This document shows, piece after piece, positions 2,422 through 47,794 of a DNA stretch of 64,000 nucleotides (positions are counted from its first letter, which is position 1; each line of letters opens with the position of its first letter). The notes below the pieces were generated by a model that saw nothing but the letters and a program-made list of their open reading frames with translations, was not told where the DNA came from and searched no databases. The stretch is from Fervidobacterium sp. (GTDB taxonomy: Bacteria; Thermotogota; Thermotogae; Thermotogales; Fervidobacteriaceae), in assembly GCA_049970055.1 (NCBI GenBank), contig JBMFNR010000001.1, positions 544,001 through 608,000 on the forward strand, read 5' to 3'. A program made the translations under genes and the position numbers.

Positions 2422-3657
2422 ATGGATTTGGAAAGCAAGAGTTCGGAAGTTGGCAAGAACCTACGTTCATCACTCATAAGAGAACTTCTCAAGTACGCAT
2501 CTGTACCAGGTTCTATTTCGTTTGGTGGTGGGGTACCAGATCCGGAGACTTTCCCAAGGCATGAACTTGCACAGATAGCAAAAGAAGTTATAGAAAACGA
2601 GTATAAATACACTCTTCAGTACAATACAACAGAGGGCGATGATGAGTTAGCTAAGCAGATGATAAAACTTCTTGAGCGAATATACGGAATTACATGTCTT
2701 GGAAGAGAAAACTTGCTCTTCACCACAGGTTCGCAGCAAGCGCTTGACTTAGTCGCGAGAATATTTTTGGATAAAGAGAGTATCTGCATAGTTGAATTCC
2801 CAGTTTACTTAGGAGCCGCAAGCGCGTTTAGAACTTTTTCACCCAGATTCGAACCGATTCCACTGGAAGACGACGGAATGGATGTCAATGTTCTTGAAAG
2901 AAAACTGAAAGAATTGGATGAAAAAGGTTTAATTAGTAAGGTTAAATTCATTTACACAGTTCCAAACTTCCACAATCCTGCTGGAGTTACTATGAGTTTT
3001 GAAAAGAGGAAAAAATTGATAGAACTCGCAGATAAGTACGATATTTTTATACTCGAGGATGATCCATATGGTATGCTAAGGTTTGAAGGTGAGCATTTAC
3101 CATCGCTGTACAAATTGGCAGGGCCAGATAGAGTTATCCTTTTAAATACGTTTAGTAAGATACTCACGCCTGGTTTAAGGATTGGTGTAATAGTTGGAAG
3201 GCAAGACATAGTTAGAAAAATCACTCTGGCGAAACAAGCTGCAGATCTTTGCAGTCCAAGTTTAAACCAAAGAATCGCTGCGAGATATCTTGAAAGGTAC
3301 GATCTATTCGAACAGCTTAAGCCTGGTATTGAACTTTATAGAAAAAAGAAAAATACCATGATTAAAGCACTCGAAGAGAACTTCTCTGATATTCCAAAAG
3401 CAAAATGGGTCAATCCACAAGGTGGACTGTTTGTGTGGATGACTCTGCCAGATGGATTTGATACTATGGAGATGTTTGAATTTGCAAAAGAAAAGAAGAT
3501 TTACTATATCCCCGGTCAAGCATTTACCATCGACGATAGTATTTCAACCTCAATGAGGTTGTCTTTCTGCTTACCACCTGAAGAAAAGATTATTGAAGGA
3601 GTAAAGAGATTAAAAGAAGTTGTTGTGGAGTATGGTAAGAAGAAGGGGTTGATTTGA
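2422..3657 (+). CDS. Class I/II PLP aminotransferase (LysN/ARO8-like)
   Basis: ISFGGGVPDP, TGSQQALD, NFHNPAG, EDDPYG and TFSKILTPGLRIG motifs. Confidence 0.9.
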   Translation: MDLESKSSEVGKNLRSSLIRELLKYASVPGSISFGGGVPDPETFPRHELAQIAKEVIENEYKYTLQYNTTEGDDELAKQMIKLLERIYGITCLGRENLLFTTGSQQALDLVARIFLDKESICIVEFPVYLGAASAFRTFSPRFEPIPLEDDGMDVNVLERKLKELDEKGLISKVKFIYTVPNFHNPAGVTMSFEKRKKLIELADKYDIFILEDDPYGMLRFEGEHLPSLYKLAGPDRVILLNTFSKILTPGLRIGVIVGRQDIVRKITLAKQAADLCSPSLNQRIAARYLERYDLFEQLKPGIELYRKKKNTMIKALEENFSDIPKAKWVNPQGGLFVWMTLPDGFDTMEMFEFAKEKKIYYIPGQAFTIDDSISTSMRLSFCLPPEEKIIEGVKRLKEVVVEYGKKKGLI

Positions 3658-3658
3658 T

Positions 3659-4727
3659 ATGAAGATCCTCGTGATTAACCCTGGTGCAACAAGTACAAAG
3701 GTTGCCGTTTTTGAAGATAAAAATAAAGTGTTGCAAGAAACTCTCCAGCATTCTGTTGAAGAGTTGGAAAAGTACCCAGACATTATGAAGCAAAAAAAGC
3801 TCAGAGAGGAAGCTATACTGAACTTTCTTTCAAAAAACCACTTAAAAGTGGAGGATTTTGACGCCATCGCAGCAAGAGGTGGCATATTACCCCCAGTTGA
3901 AAGTGGAACATACAAAGTGGATGAAAGAATGGTAGATTACCTTCTTAATAAGACAAAAGTCCAACACGCCTCAAATTTAGCAGCAGTAATAGGTTTTGAG
4001 CTTGCGAAAATTTGTAAAAAGAACATTCCAGTTTACGTCACCGATCCAGTTAGCGTAGATGAAATGATACCTGAAGCTCGACTTTCCGGAATAAAGGACA
4101 TAGAAAGAAAAAGCTTATCACATATTTTGAATATGAGAGTTGTTGGTATAAGAATCTCTGAGGAGCTTGGGAAGAAATTTAATGAACTCAATATGGTGAT
4201 AGCGCACCTTGGGAGTGGTATCTCAGTAGCACCTTTTGAAAAAGGCAGAATGATAGACGTAAATAATGCAAACGATGAAGGGCCGTTCAGTGTGGAAAGA
4301 ACTGGTGAATTGCCAGTTGGTGATGTTGTCAAGCTTTGTTATTCTGGCAAGCATACAAAAGAAGAAATAAAGAAGATGTTCGTTGGTCGTGGCGGTCTTG
4401 TAGCTTATTTAGGTACAAATGATCTGAGAGAAGCTTTTAAGATGGCTGAAACAGATCCTAAAGCCATGGAAGTCATCGAAGCGATGGCTTACCAAATTGC
4501 TCAAGAAATAGGCGCTATGTGCGTTGCACTCAAAGGTCAGGTCGATGCCATCGTTTTTACAGGTGGTATGGCTTACAGCGAAAAGTTCATCTCCATGATA
4601 AAATCATATATTTATAAATTTGGTCCCATATTTGTTGTTCCCGGTGAAATGGAAATGGAAGCACTTGCATTTGGTGCCTTGAGAGTTTTAACAAAAGAAG
4701 AACAAGAGAAAGTGTGGGGTGAAAGTT

Positions 4728-38935: not shown

Positions 38936-39679
38936 TTAGTCTTTTCGATCTTCTTCAAATCTCTCCGGCCAAAGTTTTCTGTATATTTCACCTATTCTTG
39001 CTTCTTTCGATATGTTATTAGGGTAATAGAATCTTTCTTTTATCTCCTTTGGTAAGTAACTTTGCTTTACAAATCCACCAAACGCATGGGGATATTTGTA
39101 ACCGCTATCCTCAACGTTTAGCAAGTGCCTTGGTACGGGAATGTTCATAGATTGCTTGGCCACCATTTGCGCTTTGTTTACGGCTTCGTAACTTGAATTA
39201 CTTTTTGGGGCAAGAGAAAGGTATATTACACACTCTGCTAGGTTAATAACACATTCTGGTAAACCAACGTTCTCAACTGCTTGCATAGTTGCCGTGGCCA
39301 GTACAAGAGCGAATGGATCTGCAAGGCCTATATCTTCGCTTGCTAGTATGACAAGCCTTCTTGATATAAACCTTGGATCTTCCCCTCCATTTAACATACG
39401 TGCCATATAGTAGAGTGCAGCATCTGGGTCACTTCCTCGAATGCTTTTTATAAAAGCGGATGCTAAGTTATAGTGTTCCGAATCTGTATATTTTGTTAGA
39501 TTTTCACCTACGTACATTTCAAATACTTCTTTATCTATGGTGCTTTTTCGCATCACCTTTGCCATGTTCGAGAGAATTTCGTAGGTGTTGATTAAGAATC
39601 TACCGTCGCCATTTGAAGATTTAACAAGCTGTTCTTTAATTGTATTCTCAACTTCGACACCAACGTAGGAAATTACCCT
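38936..39679 (-). pseudogene. rarA: rarA/mgsA 3' part (247 codons), separated from the 5' part by an insertion
   Basis: Open frame RVISYVGVEV...SNGDGRFLIN...SAFIKSIRGSDPDAALYY...ASEDIG...PKSN...YKYPH. Confidence 0.92.
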
Positions 39680-39713
39680 TACGTAAACAATCGGTAAAAT
39701 CTAAATTACGTAC

Positions 39714-39742
39714 TTGACAAAATGTTGTTTTTGTGGTATAAT
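39714..39742 (+). promoter_or_regulatory. Perfect-consensus sigma70 promoter inside the insertion
   Basis: TTGACA-17 nt-TATAAT with extended TG. Confidence 0.9.
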
Positions 39743-39790
39743 TTAGACGAAAAAGATTAACACAATTTTAACAATGCCAACTTAAACTTC

Positions 39791-39890
39791 TAACTTAGAT
39801 TATGTCTAATTTAGACATGGTCTAAGTTATTGCTTACATGTCAATAATACATAGCTTAGACAAGGTCTAAATTGTACTTTGTCTAAGCTA
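39791..39890. repeat. Two 39-nt palindromic units built from TTAGAC-N3-GTCTAA boxes
   Basis: Units at 39791-39829 and 39852-39890, 29/39 identical, with a 22-nt spacer. Confidence 0.9.
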
Positions 39891-39938
39891 AGTGTTTTCA
39901 TCGGCGTAACATCAAACTGTAAAGAAAGGGTGATGAGA

Positions 39939-40712
39939 ATGTGTAGGTTAGCGGCTTTTAGTAATCTAAAAGTTAAGGGTAAGTGGTTAGATTATCTAAC
40001 ACTTGCTCAAGGTGGTGATGGTAACGGGTTTATTTACCCCACCCCCGACATTGATATGAGAAAAGTAAAGGAAGGGCGGTTACACCACGAACTCTTTGGT
40101 GACTTCGTGGTTTCTAAATGGTACATAGAACCCGAGGTCACCATTGACTTTGAAGTTTCAACAATCTACTACAATTTTGGCATTGCTCAAGAAGTAGTCG
40201 AGCCAAAGAAAAAGTACAGACTCGTAGACTACGAGCATATGAACATTGCATCAAAGCCATGGTTACTATTCCACACCAGACTTGCAAGTGCTGGAGAACG
40301 GAAACTCGAAAATGTGCATCCAGCCATAGCAAAAAACGTACTACTGATGCAAAACGGTCACGACGTGAATTTTACCAAAAAGTTAGCAAAAGCGATGAAC
40401 TACAGTTACCTCGGAACAGATTATCATACAATAGCTTGGATGCTCGCTGACGGCGTGATAAAGCCAGAGTTATTGCTACATTCAACAAGTAACTGGTTCA
40501 TTATTGACATCGAAAAAAGAACATTCACCATTGTAAGCGCCAAAGAATTTGACCCACTCTTCTTCCACAAGAGCGGGAAGGGGTTCTATATTGCCTCTGA
40601 ACCGCTCGAAACAAATCACAAAGGATTTTACTTCACGGGTATCATTCGCTTTAACATCACGAGTGAGGGACTTAAAATATTAGACGAAGATATCGAAGTA
40701 CACGAAAAATAG
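39939..40712 (+). CDS. Stand-alone class II glutamine amidotransferase / Ntn-hydrolase (YafJ/EgtC-like), 257 aa
   Basis: Start MCRLAAF (Cys2) with GAAAGGGTGA RBS; DGNG, HTRLAS-x-G...NVHP, QNG, GTD and IASEPL motifs. Confidence 0.82.
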   Translation: MCRLAAFSNLKVKGKWLDYLTLAQGGDGNGFIYPTPDIDMRKVKEGRLHHELFGDFVVSKWYIEPEVTIDFEVSTIYYNFGIAQEVVEPKKKYRLVDYEHMNIASKPWLLFHTRLASAGERKLENVHPAIAKNVLLMQNGHDVNFTKKLAKAMNYSYLGTDYHTIAWMLADGVIKPELLLHSTSNWFIIDIEKRTFTIVSAKEFDPLFFHKSGKGFYIASEPLETNHKGFYFTGIIRFNITSEGLKILDEDIEVHEK

Positions 40713-40742
40713 TTGGAAAGCATGGAAGGTCTCACTTTTAAT

Positions 40743-40776
40743 AAAAAAGCGAAAAAAGGGGACGGTTTCCCACGCT
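40743..40776 (-). terminator. Putative terminator facing the host rarA transcript
   Basis: Minus strand reads GGGA-AACCG-TCCC followed by two T6 tracts; the stem is short. Confidence 0.45.
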
Positions 40777-40837
40777 AGAGCGGATTATACGACGTATATC
40801 TTCAACCAAATAGCCACCACCTTCTGTTGTTGACCAT

Positions 40838-41323
40838 GTTAAGGAGTTTTTCAAGATCTTGTTCGGAAAGCTTTCTAAATCTCAACATTCTACACCGTGA
40901 AAGTAGAGCTGGGTTTATAACATGTTGCGGATTTTCAGTTGTTGTTCCAAAAAGCACGTAGGTACCAGTTTCTACACCGGGTAAAAAAACATCCTGCTGT
41001 TTTTTGTTAAACCGATGGATTTCGTCTACAAATATTAGGATTTTCTTTATTCCTCTCATATTACGCGCGTACTTTTCCAAGTTCTTTATATCTTCAGTGC
41101 TTGTAAATGCTGCGTTCATTTGGACAACTTCGTAGTTGGTGTATCTTTTGATAAGATTCACCACAGAACTCTTCCCGCTTCCGGGAGGTCCGAAAAGTAT
41201 TGCGGAAAATAAGTTGTTATTCTCAATTGACACACGTAAAAAAGCACCCTCGCCGAGAAGGTGCTCCTGACCAACAAAATCTTCAAAAGTATTAGGCCTG
41301 AGTATTTCGCTTAAACCACTCAA
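40838..41323 (-). pseudogene. rarA: rarA/mgsA 5' part (162 codons, AAA+ core); reads 11 codons into the insert and stops at 40802
   Basis: LRP-x-x-x-x-DFVGQEHL, GPPGSGKS, VDEIHRFNKKQQD, TTENP and ALLSR motifs. Confidence 0.92.
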
Positions 41324-42227
41324 CAGTTTTCTTCAACCCCTCTTCGAGCGTGTACTTTGGTTCCCACTTTAGTTCGATCCATGCACGATTATAGCAAAGC
41401 AAACTTTTTCTTATATCGCCTTTCCTGTGGGGGCCATAGATAGGATCCTTTTTGTATCCGGTAAGCTTCTTTAGCAATTTGAACAATTCGTTTGTAGTTG
41501 TTCCAGTTGCTGTTCCGATGTTAATAACAAGACCATCACCTTTTTCCATTGCCTTTATGTTTGCATCTACTACGTCTTCTACGTAAACGTAATCTCTTGT
41601 GTATTCTCCATCACCAAATATTGTGCAATCTTCGTTTTTTAGCATTCTTGAAGTAAAAATAGCTACAACTCCAGCTTCACCGTATGGGTCTTGCCTTGGA
41701 CCGTAAACATTACCGTATCTTAAAACGGTGTACGAAAGGCCAAATTCTTTGCTAAAAAACCTCAGATAATTTTCAACAGCAAATTTTGCAATACCGTATG
41801 GAGACATTGGCTGCGGGAAAACACTTTCAGGAGTTGGGAAGACCTTGACGTCCTCGCCATAAATAGCTCCACCTGTAGAAGAGAATATAAATTTTTTTAC
41901 GCCATGTCCTATCGATGCCTTTATTAAATTTATGCTTCCAATTATATTCCAATTTGCATCTTTAACAGGGTCCTTTACGGAAATAGCCACACTTGCCTGC
42001 GCTGCCAGATGAAAGACGTATTCGAATTTTTCAGATTCAAATAATTGATCTGTTTTCTCACTTTCGTAAATGTCCATTTCTAAAAACTTAGCTTTTGGAT
42101 TAACATTCTCCCTCTTTCCAGTCGAAAGGTTGTCTATAACAACCACGTCGTGGCCCAGTTCGACTAATCTGTCTGTAAGATGTGATCCAATAAAGCCAGC
42201 TCCACCCGTTACTAGTACTTTACTCAT
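41292..42227 (-). CDS. UDP-glucose 4-epimerase-like extended SDR
   Basis: TGGAGFIGS, HLAAQ, SSTGGAIYG, YGIAK and RYGNVYGPRQ motifs. Confidence 0.92.
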   Translation of the reverse strand: MSKVLVTGGAGFIGSHLTDRLVELGHDVVVIDNLSTGKRENVNPKAKFLEMDIYESEKTDQLFESEKFEYVFHLAAQASVAISVKDPVKDANWNIIGSINLIKASIGHGVKKFIFSSTGGAIYGEDVKVFPTPESVFPQPMSPYGIAKFAVENYLRFFSKEFGLSYTVLRYGNVYGPRQDPYGEAGVVAIFTSRMLKNEDCTIFGDGEYTRDYVYVEDVVDANIKAMEKGDGLVINIGTATGTTTNELFKLLKKLTGYKKDPIYGPHRKGDIRKSLLCYNRAWIELKWEPKYTLEEGLKKTVEWFKRNTQA

Positions 42228-42738
42228 CAACTTCATCCTCCTTTATTTTTCCTTTCAATGTGTAAACTTCTTCTGGTATTTCTAGATTCATTCTTTGCTC
42301 TTTTATAAACTTTTCTAACTCCTCGGCTTTTTCTTTAGTAAAATCAATCAAAACTGAGTAAAACCTTCTTAATTTTCTTCTCGTGTCCGCATCCAAATCG
42401 TACACCATCAGATTTGCAATTTGTTCAGCTTTTTTTTCAGGCACTCCCACCACATACATGAAAAAATACTTTATTCTTGACTCGCCTGATTTTAACATCT
42501 GAGCTATTCTTAAGCCACGTGGGGTGAGTTTTACAAAACCATATCTTTTGTGGTCAACGAGCCCAAGCTCTACAAGTTTTTTCACAGCATTAGTTGCGCT
42601 CGCATAAGATACACTTTTCAATTTAGCTATTTCTGAAATTCTTGCTACGCCTTCTTTTTCGATGAGAGAATATATCGCAGAAATGTAGCTCATAACTGTC
42701 GATGTTAATTTTGTTTCATGCTTGTTTTCGCTTTTCAC
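42220..42738 (-). CDS. DtxR/MntR-like winged-helix regulator
   Basis: YISAIY...ARISEIA...KKLVELGLV...VKLTPRG. Confidence 0.82.
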   Translation of the reverse strand: MKSENKHETKLTSTVMSYISAIYSLIEKEGVARISEIAKLKSVSYASATNAVKKLVELGLVDHKRYGFVKLTPRGLRIAQMLKSGESRIKYFFMYVVGVPEKKAEQIANLMVYDLDADTRRKLRRFYSVLIDFTKEKAEELEKFIKEQRMNLEIPEEVYTLKGKIKEDEVDE

Positions 42739-45596: not shown

Positions 45597-47336
45597 TCAC
45601 AGGACTTCTTCTTTGGAAAGTTGAGAGTACACTATTTCTTTATAAACTTCGTTACTATTTAGTAATTCATCGTGCGTACCGATACCTACTATTTCGCCGT
45701 CTTTTAAAACAATTATTTGGTCGGCGTGCATTATCGTTGCAACACGTTGAGCTACAATTATTACGGTTGAATCTCTGGTTTCTTTGAAAAGTTTAGCTCT
45801 CACCTTAGCGTCTGTCCTAAAATCAAGTGCACTGAAGGTATCATCAAAGAGGTATATCCTTGGCTTCCCAGCGATAGTGCGTGCGATGGATATTCTTTGC
45901 TTTTGACCACCTGAGAGGTTCAATCCTGCTTGATCTATGTGATAATCTAAACCTTCTGGGTATTTTTGAGAGAATTCTAATACCTGAGCAATGTCAGCTG
46001 CATGCTCAACCATCTCGTCCGTAATCCATTCACGACCAAATTTTATATTCTCTCGTATCGTTCCAGAAAAAATAACTGCTTTTTGCGTTGCGTAACCTAT
46101 ATTTCTTTTCATGATTTCAAAAGGAATTTTCCTCACATCGATACCATCGATCATGATATTGCCAGAAGTCACATCATAAAATCTAACAATGAGGTTCAAA
46201 AGTGTAGATTTTCCCGAACCTGTTGCACCTATTATAGCAGTTATCTTTCCGGGTAAGGCTGTAAACGAAATACCTTTCAAGACAGGCTCAGCTGCGCCCG
46301 GGTAGGAAAAAGTAACATTGTTAAATTCAATCTCTCCGTTAATATCACTTTCGCCTTGAAAGACAGGAAAAAGAGTGTTCTTTTCTGGTTCTTTGATTTT
46401 CGGTTCGGTTGTTAAAACTTCTCTTATTCTTTGATTTGAAACACTTGCGCGTGGAAGAAAGATGAATATAACGGAAATCATTATAAATGAGAACATTATT
46501 TGCATCACATACTGCATGACAGCCATCATTTGGCCGATTTGTAATGTACCGGCATCGATCTGTTTTGCACCAAACCAAATTATTGCTATTATTGTAAAAT
46601 TCATCACTATCATCATGTAAGGGAAAAGTAACGATGCAACCCTATTAACAATTAAAGAAGTTCTTGTAAGGTCGTCGTTTGCTTGCTTAAAACGTTCTCT
46701 TTCTTTGTCTTCTTTATTAAAAGCTCTTATTACCCTTATACCCGTTACCCTTTCTCTGACAATTAAGTTCAATTTGTCTATCTTTTTTTGCATGCTTTTG
46801 AAAAGTGGAGCGACTATCCAAGCTATGATTCCAAGCCCTGCCAACATTACGGGAACGGATACGAGCAGAATACTTGTGAGTTTGGCATCCTTTTGGACTG
46901 CCATTATAATTCCTCCAACCGCCATGACTGGTGCCATTACAACCATTCTGAGAATCATGACGGTAGCTTGTTGTATTTGTGTTACATCATTTGTTGTTCT
47001 TGTGATTAAGGAAGAAGTGCTGAATTTGTTCATTTCTTCTAAGTAGAAAGATTCAACCTTTTTGAAAATAGCTTCTCTCAGGTCTTTGCCAAGCCCCATG
47101 CTTACAATCGAAGACGTGTAACTTGCCAAAATAGCTGCAAGGACACTAAAAAAGGAAACTAGGAGCATCTTACTTCCAATTTGCCAGATATAATTCGTAT
47201 CACCTTTTGTTACACCTTTGTCTATAATATCCGACATCAGATCAGGAAGATACAATGAGATGATAGATTGAACAACCACAAGTAATACAGTTATGACGAT
47301 CAATAACCAGTATTTTTTGAGATATTTTCCTAGCAC
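45597..47336 (-). CDS. Heterodimeric ABC exporter subunit (TM287-like)
   Basis: TMD, GATGSGKS, LSGGQ, degenerate Walker B (FDD) and switch (AQR). Confidence 0.93.
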   Translation of the reverse strand: MLGKYLKKYWLLIVITVLLVVVQSIISLYLPDLMSDIIDKGVTKGDTNYIWQIGSKMLLVSFFSVLAAILASYTSSIVSMGLGKDLREAIFKKVESFYLEEMNKFSTSSLITRTTNDVTQIQQATVMILRMVVMAPVMAVGGIIMAVQKDAKLTSILLVSVPVMLAGLGIIAWIVAPLFKSMQKKIDKLNLIVRERVTGIRVIRAFNKEDKERERFKQANDDLTRTSLIVNRVASLLFPYMMIVMNFTIIAIIWFGAKQIDAGTLQIGQMMAVMQYVMQIMFSFIMISVIFIFLPRASVSNQRIREVLTTEPKIKEPEKNTLFPVFQGESDINGEIEFNNVTFSYPGAAEPVLKGISFTALPGKITAIIGATGSGKSTLLNLIVRFYDVTSGNIMIDGIDVRKIPFEIMKRNIGYATQKAVIFSGTIRENIKFGREWITDEMVEHAADIAQVLEFSQKYPEGLDYHIDQAGLNLSGGQKQRISIARTIAGKPRIYLFDDTFSALDFRTDAKVRAKLFKETRDSTVIIVAQRVATIMHADQIIVLKDGEIVGIGTHDELLNSNEVYKEIVYSQLSKEEVL

Positions 47337-47794
47337 TCTAAATCACGCTCCTTTTGAAAGTATTCGTCAATTAACCTTTTTTCTATTTTATTCAAAATGT
47401 TTCCCAAATTTTCTATTTCTTCATCCGTAATAGCTGAAAGTATATTCCTTTCTAAATTATCTACTATCTCCCTAACATGTTGAAGTACATTTTGTGCCTT
47501 CTGGGTTAGATATACGTGCAAGATTCGTCTATCTTTTTCATCAGCTTCTCGATAAATAAAACCGTTTTTCTCCATACGCTTTAGCATCACCGCGACTGTT
47601 CCTGGTTCAATATTTAAAGTGTCAGCAATTTCACGTTGGTTGATACCAGGTTTACGATTTATGATAAAAAGCATAGGTATCTGCCCAGGGTGAATTCCAA
47701 ATTCTTTTGATATTTTTTCATGAATAATCTTGAAAATCGCTCTTTGAAGCTTGTTTAGAGAGTAAATAAGACCTTTGTGATAACCATCAAACAT
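47330..47794 (-). CDS. MarR-family regulator
   Basis: QREIA...LKRMEKNGFI-x-R...DRR...LT. Confidence 0.92.
   Translation of the reverse strand: MFDGYHKGLIYSLNKLQRAIFKIIHEKISKEFGIHPGQIPMLFIINRKPGINQREIADTLNIEPGTVAVMLKRMEKNGFIYREADEKDRRILHVYLTQKAQNVLQHVREIVDNLERNILSAITDEEIENLGNILNKIEKRLIDEYFQKERDLEC

Follow-up and report, generated by a model that had tools for sequence, protein, structure and literature searches.

Four 15-bp dyad boxes of the form TTAGAC-N3-GTCTAA occupy the leader of a short foreign module that interrupts rarA in the chromosome of a hot-spring Fervidobacterium, and a second array of such boxes lies on a phage contig of the same assembly. The half-sites and their inner spacing are conserved in two unrelated contexts, one of them a phage, and we therefore read the arrays as operator-like. 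With moderate confidence, we interpret the boxes as predicted DNA sites for a phage-encoded regulator, set in a phage-derived module of promoter, operator and gene. A small piece of phage or mobile-element DNA, comprising a consensus promoter, the array and a gene for an Ntn amidohydrolase, would have been captured in rarA by illegitimate insertion, and the four sites would be recognized by a sequence-specific DNA-binding protein encoded by the phage. If this regulator were present, supplied by the co-assembled phage or by a relative in the cell, the sites would be occupied and transcription of the cargo gene would be blocked or throttled; if it were absent, the consensus promoter would run constitutively. 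To our knowledge, almost nothing is known of regulation in Thermotogota phages, and the boxes constitute a concrete, testable candidate regulator-binding motif for a Fervidobacterium phage. Coordinates given here without a contig name are those of the window, the whole 64,000-nt stretch of DNA that was analyzed (Table 1).

Table 1 Coordinates of the rarA insertion, its leader and cargo gene, and the phage array
Feature	Position	Strand	Description
3' part of split rarA/mgsA (AAA_assoc_2 + MgsA_C)	38936-39673	-	ORF 38936-39565; MgsA_C 9e-59
Inserted module, roughly 1.15 kb	39674-40840		left edge within 39674-39682, right edge within 40832-40840
Sigma-70 promoter TTGACA-17-TATAAT with TG extension	39714-39742	+	12/12 consensus; TG before the -10 hexamer
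Lone half-site TTAGAC	39743-39748	+	abuts the -10 hexamer directly (repeat family D7)
U1	39791-39829	+	39-nt palindrome: boxes W1 and W2 plus 4-nt complementary flanks
W1; W2	39795-39809; 39811-39825	+	both boxes of U1
U2	39852-39890	+	39-nt palindrome: boxes W3 and W4 plus complementary flanks
W3; W4	39856-39870; 39872-39886	+	both boxes of U2
Purine-rich GAAAGGGTGA	39924-39933	+	6-15 nt upstream of the cargo ORF; read as ribosome-binding site
Protospacer	39936-39977	+	start of cargo gene; 39/42 (93%) match to a CRISPR spacer of G002
Cargo ORF, 257 aa, begins MCRLAAF	39939-40712	+	class II glutamine amidotransferase / Ntn hydrolase, stand-alone
5' part of split rarA (AAA ATPase)	40841-41323	-	ORF 40802-41323
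Second array, four boxes ATAGACacaGTCTAA, TTATACacaGTCTAA, TTAGATtatGTCTAA, TTAGATcatGTCTAA	C10:6391-6456		start-to-start 18, 17, 16 nt

A foreign module interrupts rarA

The module separates the two halves of rarA and is oriented against the interrupted operon. The N-terminal frame of rarA enters the insert for 11 codons and stops at 40802. The unaligned gap in rarA is shorter than 200 nt in 11 of the 12 other genomes of the genus, and in the twelfth the two halves lie on two contigs; the module is absent from rarA in the 11 genomes that have both halves on one contig. The halves are 21 nt apart in the Fervidobacterium genome G004. Alignment of the edges leaves about 9 nt of rarA unaccounted for at the insertion, and no direct or inverted repeats of at least 6 nt were found at the junctions. 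Because the module is single-copy in the assembly, encodes no recombinase (its only ORF is the Ntn hydrolase) and lacks junction repeats, the insertion looks like illegitimate capture rather than transposition or site-specific integration. Read in this way, the locus documents a rarA gene knocked out by what appears to be a captured piece of phage DNA.

Several comparisons bear on where the module came from. The spacer with the match to the cargo-gene start comes from another Fervidobacterium species (G002:C1:1595567-1595608) and has the repeat GTTTCCATCTCTTTCAGAGAGAATCACCTTTCCTAC on both sides; the CRISPR array that holds it spans about 1668-2230 of locus L088 (G002:C1:1593500-1597600). The CRISPR arrays of the window's own genome (G000) are collapsed in the assembly. 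A hot-spring metagenome run, X1, contains junction-spanning contigs identical to the window and, being possibly the source sample of the window, does not count as independent support. X1 further yields a leader variant (39726-39882, with 17 differences and 2 gaps) and a variant of the 3' end of the cargo gene, the right flank of which differs after 40761. More diverged copies occur in an oil-field run, X3, where the left flank differs before about 39680. These variant copies with other flanks indicate that promoter, leader and gene travel together. Judged from such sequence comparisons, the module is foreign, of phage or mobile-element origin.

A consensus promoter precedes a predicted amidotransferase gene

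The promoter of the module matches the sigma-70 consensus at every position of both hexamers. With a predicted transcription start near 39749-39751, the boxes fall at about +46 to +137, and U1 and U2 lie between the promoter and the start codon, about 45-140 nt past the promoter, in a 5' UTR of roughly 190 nt. The array is thus positioned downstream of the promoter and not over it; only the lone half-site abuts the -10 hexamer. At this half-site, GTATAATTTAGAC matches the centre of U1, GTCTAATTTAGAC, at 12 of 13 positions. Protein bound downstream of the promoter would repress most simply as a roadblock. Because a consensus promoter is followed by four sites, the module would be a natural reporter for the proposed regulator.

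A 36-nt promoter 86% identical to that of the module (TACTTGACAAAAT...GTGGTATAAT) was seen on the reverse strand of a contig of another genome (locus L087, G012:C72, about 1482-1560). A strong terminator hairpin follows within about 20 nt, which implies a very short transcript, or a small RNA.

The cargo protein has a weak Pfam match to GATase_6 (20 bits, below the cut-off of 27), and its profile retrieves the glutaminase domains of GlmS and PurF from the PDB at 4e-6. Its AlphaFold model has a pLDDT of 91, and the top Foldseek matches are to the GlmS glutaminase domain (probability 1.00). Class II amidotransferases are characterized by a cysteine nucleophile directly after the initiator methionine and by a four-layer alpha-beta-beta-alpha fold. 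The residues invariant in an alignment of seven cargo sequences include M1, C2, R3, H112-T113-R114 and N139-G140; in an alignment of 18 sequences, N139-G140 is invariant and M1, C2 and R3 are nearly so. The modeled fold places the cargo protein among the class II glutamine amidotransferases / Ntn hydrolases, with Cys2 as the predicted nucleophile.

The family is small: a search of 1.84 billion proteins at E <= 1e-10 yields 15 representatives. It occurs in 3 of 24 genomes of the bacterial family and, across the Thermotogota, in 4 of 151; both counts include the window's own genome. The ORF is intact here, as is its 97% identical counterpart in another Fervidobacterium assembly; two further homologs, P0002 and P0003, are 83% and 79% identical. 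The view that the array belongs with the cargo gene holds for close homologs, with which diverged leaders travel, but not for the homolog 42-49% identical in two other Fervidobacterium genomes (G004 and G001), upstream of which the boxes are absent. In G004, the cargo-family gene stands beside a gene for a 1602-aa DEAD/MZB helicase, and the G025 member has small ORFs around it and a Mu GemA-like gene close by. The leader and cargo gene had no match among INPHARED phages by blastn or tblastn, and no cargo relatives were confirmed in IMG/VR and genome contigs. The cargo protein represents a rare family of stand-alone amidotransferases that travels with phages and defense islands.

The boxes cluster at two loci, one of them on a phage contig

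An earlier, sequence-only reading of this DNA had described two 39-nt palindromes at a 61-nt period, each holding two boxes. Its coordinates, sequences and period proved exact, and all four boxes were recovered. U1 and U2 are separated by 22 nt, and the stem of U2 can be extended to 39846-39896. Within each unit, a single base lies between the boxes, which deviate from TTAGACNNNGTCTAA at 1, 0, 0 and 2 positions (W1 to W4, respectively). The number of boxes alone is not above chance: the window contains 4, the shuffle mean is 3.42, and 45 of 100 shuffles reach 4. It is their clustering that exceeds chance. At least four half-sites within 150 nt occur at only two loci in the whole assembly, the U1/U2 leader and the array on contig C10, and the feature is real and non-random. 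Boxes with at most one mismatch number eight in the 1,867,062-bp assembly: three in the leader, four at C10:6391-6456 and one at C8:15105.

The C10 array lies about 300 nt past the last ORF of a lysis module, beyond a hairpin and T-run that we read as a terminator. Its third box is identical to the first box of the window. Similarity between the leader and C10 is limited to the boxes (31 nt, 94%, E 2.9e-4), and the flanks are unrelated. C10 encodes a tail-tip protein, an endolysin (7e-45) and other phage proteins. C8 carries genes for the terminase large subunit and portal and an ORF of tape-measure size, and C20 holds the end of the tape measure; C12 encodes a RecE-like exonuclease, an AAA_25 replicative protein and a RusA-like resolvase. 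The assembly of the phage is fragmented, and C10 ends in tandem repeats after the array: imperfect, purine-rich units of about 98 nt with sub-units of roughly 49 nt, at C10 6458-6648 (L021), which probably caused the assembly break.

Among all eight boxes of the two arrays, GTCTAA is invariant and the inner spacer is fixed at 3 nt. The left half is degenerate (TTAGAC, TTAGAT, TTGTAC, ATAGAC or TTATAC), and the distance from one box to the next ranges between 1 and 3 nt. An invariant half-site with a fixed inner spacer, a degenerate partner half and variable spacing between boxes argue for binding sites of a dimer rather than for one RNA stem.

The single box at C8:15105, TTAGACgtgGTATAAt, overlaps an extended -10 element upstream of terS. 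We do not use it as evidence, as it does not exceed the genomic background: it ranks 16th in the genome-wide PWM scan, below box-like sites in two CRISPR leaders. These two leaders, on contig C9 of G000 (6099 and 14337), share the box-like TTAGACATAAT... about 248 nt before the first repeat. The sites score as high as true boxes in the PWM scan and are probably promoter-like sequence. On the minus strand of C8 (L022, 15927-15690), AGAGAGAACAGAGAG-type repeats, made up of purines alone, run for about 230 nt behind a consensus promoter (TTGACA-17-TATAAT). Next in line, still upstream of terS, are an AT-rich segment, iteron-like ACACGTA repeats, another promoter-like site and a strong terminator; the region may serve the phage as an origin or for packaging, or may encode a non-coding RNA.

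No box with at most one mismatch lies upstream of a host gene anywhere in the assembly; seven of the eight are in the module or the phage array, and PWM matches elsewhere in the genome are at background level. This distribution bears on the proposal that the boxes are an operator for a host protein, either the DtxR-like protein encoded at 42220-42738 or the MarR-like protein encoded at 47330-47794. The sequence-only reading had pointed to the DtxR family: TTAG...CTAA ends are common to DtxR operators, and a Fe_dep_repress gene lies in the interrupted operon. The DtxR/IdeR operator is, however, a 19-bp palindrome of 9-1-9 geometry that precedes metal-homeostasis genes, and the boxes have a 6-3-6 geometry in a foreign module opposed to the operon. 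The DtxR link is unsupported and membership in this operator class is rejected; a host operator has an almost negligible probability.

The motif was also searched for in larger collections. The exact motif pair is absent from 2.9 million viral contigs, from the 23 other genomes of the family and from three viral records related to the phage by their endolysins (79, 60 and 46% identity), which have no boxes at all. A 31-nt double-box pattern had no match in viral contigs and three in genome contigs, all from unrelated bacteria (Woeseiaceae, Streptomyces and a gammaproteobacterial MAG). A 22-nt pattern likewise had no match in viral contigs and retrieved 41 metagenome stretches; where the setting was Thermotogota-like or phage-like, none of them had more than two boxes. 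One 5-box match and six others from one sample resemble a dispersed repeat. The parts of the literature that we could consult on the motif as an operator or on Fervidobacterium prophages contain nothing on this motif or element. In one of the endolysin-related records, a 61-kb IMG/VR contig (L097), a gene for a 542-aa Cpn60/TCP-1 chaperonin (3066-4694) lies directly upstream of the endolysin gene.

Phage genes and alternative roles in phage DNA

Features expected of an operator array are present in part. There are at least three dyad copies with fixed spacing, and sites lie on a phage contig with tail and lysis genes; no cognate regulator was found among 31 ORFs of the phage-like contigs, the phage being incompletely assembled. 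Pfam searches of these ORFs, from C8, C10, C12, C14, C19 and C20, revealed no helix-turn-helix (HTH) or ribbon-helix-helix (RHH) protein at E <= 0.05, and the only HTH seen was the C-terminus of the replicative AAA_25 protein. Of the three candidates put forward in the sequence-only reading, a four-site operator for a trans-acting repressor fits best, as the boxes recur in a phage, although its regulator was not found; a replication or transfer origin was supported by nothing that we found.

The boxes might instead mark a phage site for recombination, partition, packaging or replication (an Xis or Int arm site, the centromere of a phage-plasmid, pac or cos, or iterons), with the module copy as a relic or decoy, a reading that we consider rather unlikely. 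In temperate siphoviruses, attP often follows the lysis module, and the phage array has just this position, with the 98-nt repeats between it and the contig end. The leader array occupies the stretch about 115-210 nt in from the left insert junction, and a small contig, C14, encodes a ParA-like protein. Against this, the phage contigs contain no detectable integrase and the insert junctions no core repeat. C14 has one TAGAC/GTCTA half-site and no box, and its membership in the phage is putative. Moreover, arm and Xis sites are usually direct repeats, and the boxes are dyads.

Just two tyrosine recombinase matches were found, one to a XerC/D-like gene carried by C2 and the other to a 94-aa fragment (C1:659983-660306). 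The latter, a C-terminal fragment at 1465-1749 of locus L090 (G000:C1:658483-661164), sits beside small TA-like ORFs near the end of C1 and is a decayed mobile-element remnant. C14 (L028, 16-1699) holds a hicA-hicB-like pair, the ParA-like ATPase gene, a 125-aa ORF and an open-ended DNA methyltransferase-like ORF; C14 is a plasmid or phage-plasmid fragment with a putative link to the phage contigs. Compared with the 23 other genomes of the family, the 2 kb around the C10 array gave only matches of 30-46 nt, none at the boxes and none in tRNA genes.

The leader palindromes form long hairpins

As DNA, U1 and U2 fold into hairpins with z scores of -7.9 and -5.8, and 0 of 200 shuffles folded as well. 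U1 contains 17 Watson-Crick pairs, 2 G-T pairs and no mismatch, and U2 contains 16 Watson-Crick pairs, 2 G-T pairs and one mismatch (C16/T24). The sequence-only reading had listed changes between the units at 3/37, 10/30, 11/29, 13/27 and 17/23, together with one broken pair; the list is correct, the broken pair being that of U2. Three of the changes (3/37, 11/29 and 13/27) are two-sided and preserve pairing, and the units called 'covarying' are a comparison of n = 2. The seven extra positions outside the half-sites, in the N3 spacers and flanks, all pair in both U1 and U2, as against 0 of 7 in the phage pair. This super-palindromy is unexplained by independent operators. The C10 array does not form the long hairpin (DNA z -2.1, matched by 9 of 200 shuffles), which indicates that it is the boxes that are conserved and not the hairpin.

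These hairpins could act at the RNA level. Transcribed into the 5' UTR of the cargo mRNA, they would operate in cis, through stabilization at high temperature, as a processing site for a double-strand RNase or in put/nut-like antitermination; we assign this role a modest probability. The palindromes have the appropriate location between a consensus promoter and the start codon. The plus-strand leader RNA folds better than the minus strand (-62.7 versus -50.3 kcal/mol; z -7.5 versus -5.9), and at 70 C both RNA hairpins stay folded, at -7.8 and -8.0 kcal/mol. Read on the sense strand, every one of the four non-Watson-Crick pairs is G-U, and the complementarity reaches into the N3 spacers and the 4-nt flanks, with three two-sided changes that distinguish U1 from U2. 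The units number only two, however, and four of four G-U pairs on one strand would arise by chance about once in 16 cases. Self-palindromic arms are odd for an RNA stem and natural for tandem operators, and the phage array retains the boxes in the absence of a hairpin. Rfam 15 returned no family (the best match, at E 0.087 and 22.5 bits against a gathering score of 100, is to a spurious miRNA model), and no T-run terminator was found after the U1 or U2 hairpin. Selection on hairpin structure or symmetry, and with it a structured RNA, had both been suggested from the sequence; the reach of the symmetry, the strand of the G-U pairs and the folding at 70 C agree with these suggestions, and the limitation to two units and the phage array, which has neither hairpin nor super-palindromy, speak against them.

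The order of promoter, repeats and ORF has a superficial likeness to type III toxin-antitoxin systems (ToxIN), in which tandem direct repeats are followed by a terminator and then by an endoribonuclease toxin, and one could envisage a repeat RNA that the cargo protein processes or binds. The leader has only two repeats, which are 22 nt apart and palindromic rather than tandem direct; the stretch from repeats to ORF has no terminator, and the cargo fold is that of an amidotransferase and not of an endoribonuclease. Membership in the ToxIN-like class was rejected on these grounds, and a relationship of this kind is very improbable.

With the boxes taken as DNA sites, the long hairpins may be an extra property that the leader RNA possesses, or may simply have arisen as mutation perfected the palindromes. 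Template switching that perfects palindromes could produce the same picture of symmetry, and the boxes might then have no present function, as decaying operator copies perfected by template-switch mutation in a dead phage fragment. Such a relic is improbable. It would agree with the capture-like insert, which lacks end repeats and leaves the same few nucleotides of rarA unaccounted for, and with the two mismatches already present in W4. A relic would not be expected to keep an intact cargo ORF, found also in the 97% identical copy, or a promoter that still matches the consensus in full, and leader and gene remain together in diverged copies.

Comparison with known systems

By analogy, the closest kinds of system are the operator arrays of temperate-phage repressors and phage morons. 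Repressor operator arrays, exemplified by lambda OR/OL, P22 and 434, resemble the leader in having several closely placed dyad sites by a strong promoter, conserved half-sites with free inner spacers, and one type of site at more than one place in the phage DNA. They differ in that here the sites lie downstream of the promoter at only 16 nt from centre to centre, no repressor gene was found among the 31 phage-like ORFs, and one copy is on a 1.15-kb chromosomal fragment. Phage morons are self-contained promoter-gene-terminator units in prophages. Like them, the module has a single accessory gene with its own strong promoter, an apparent phage origin and a patchy distribution; unlike them, it stands alone in a broken host gene, outside a prophage, and carries the candidate binding sites of the phage.

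Partition and RHH arrays (R1 parC/ParR, TP228 parH/ParG and omega) share with the boxes a close-packed, alternating arrangement in which half-sites recur at distances of about 8 nt, and they can serve as operators as well; here, however, no partner protein was recognized, and the linkage of the ParA contig is putative. The put RNAs of HK022 are two stem-loops just downstream of the early promoters, and the leader likewise would form two stable stem-loops early in the transcribed region of a phage-derived unit. There is no match in sequence or model to put, and the stems here are much longer and perfectly symmetric, with palindromic arms. IS200/IS605 elements and REP/RAYT systems are present in multiple copies, encode a Y1 transposase and bear subterminal hairpins at their ends; this class was rejected for the single-copy module, which has both hairpins on one side and an Ntn hydrolase as its only ORF.

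If the boxes are phage-regulator sites, as we favor, the module could have a further role as a domesticated phage-sensing switch or decoy: the chromosomal array would put the Ntn amidohydrolase under the phage regulator and may titrate that regulator. We regard this extension as doubtful. Were it true, expression of the enzyme, or the lysis-lysogeny or partition decision of the phage, would depend on the presence of the phage, and the hairpin symmetry would add an RNA-level layer. A host copy that senses or titrates a phage regulator would represent unusual host-phage cross-talk.

OxyR-type LysR boxes (T-N11-A, ATAGnt-N3-anCTAT) share with the boxes the 6-3-6 geometry and the TAG-N7-CTA core. 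They differ in that here 1 nt rather than 7 separates the boxes and the context is a phage, not oxidative stress. The LysR/OxyR class was rejected, as PF00126 has no match in G000 (98.7% complete), and the likeness is a resemblance only. Eight unrelated, high-GC metagenome contigs (L055, L056, L058, L062, L067, L069, L070 and L080) carry the same double box as the module, in the form GTCTAAATTAGA(C/T)(A/C)AAGTCTAA, flanked by a divergent gene on one side and by a TTGACAATTGAT motif on the other. In L069, the gene that it precedes encodes a di-haem cytochrome c peroxidase, and a LysR regulator is encoded about 1 kb from it (by Pfam, in one of the eight loci). The double box of these contigs is likely an OxyR-type operator. 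In another unrelated contig, the same double box precedes a 737-aa ORF that we read by eye as a catalase-peroxidase.
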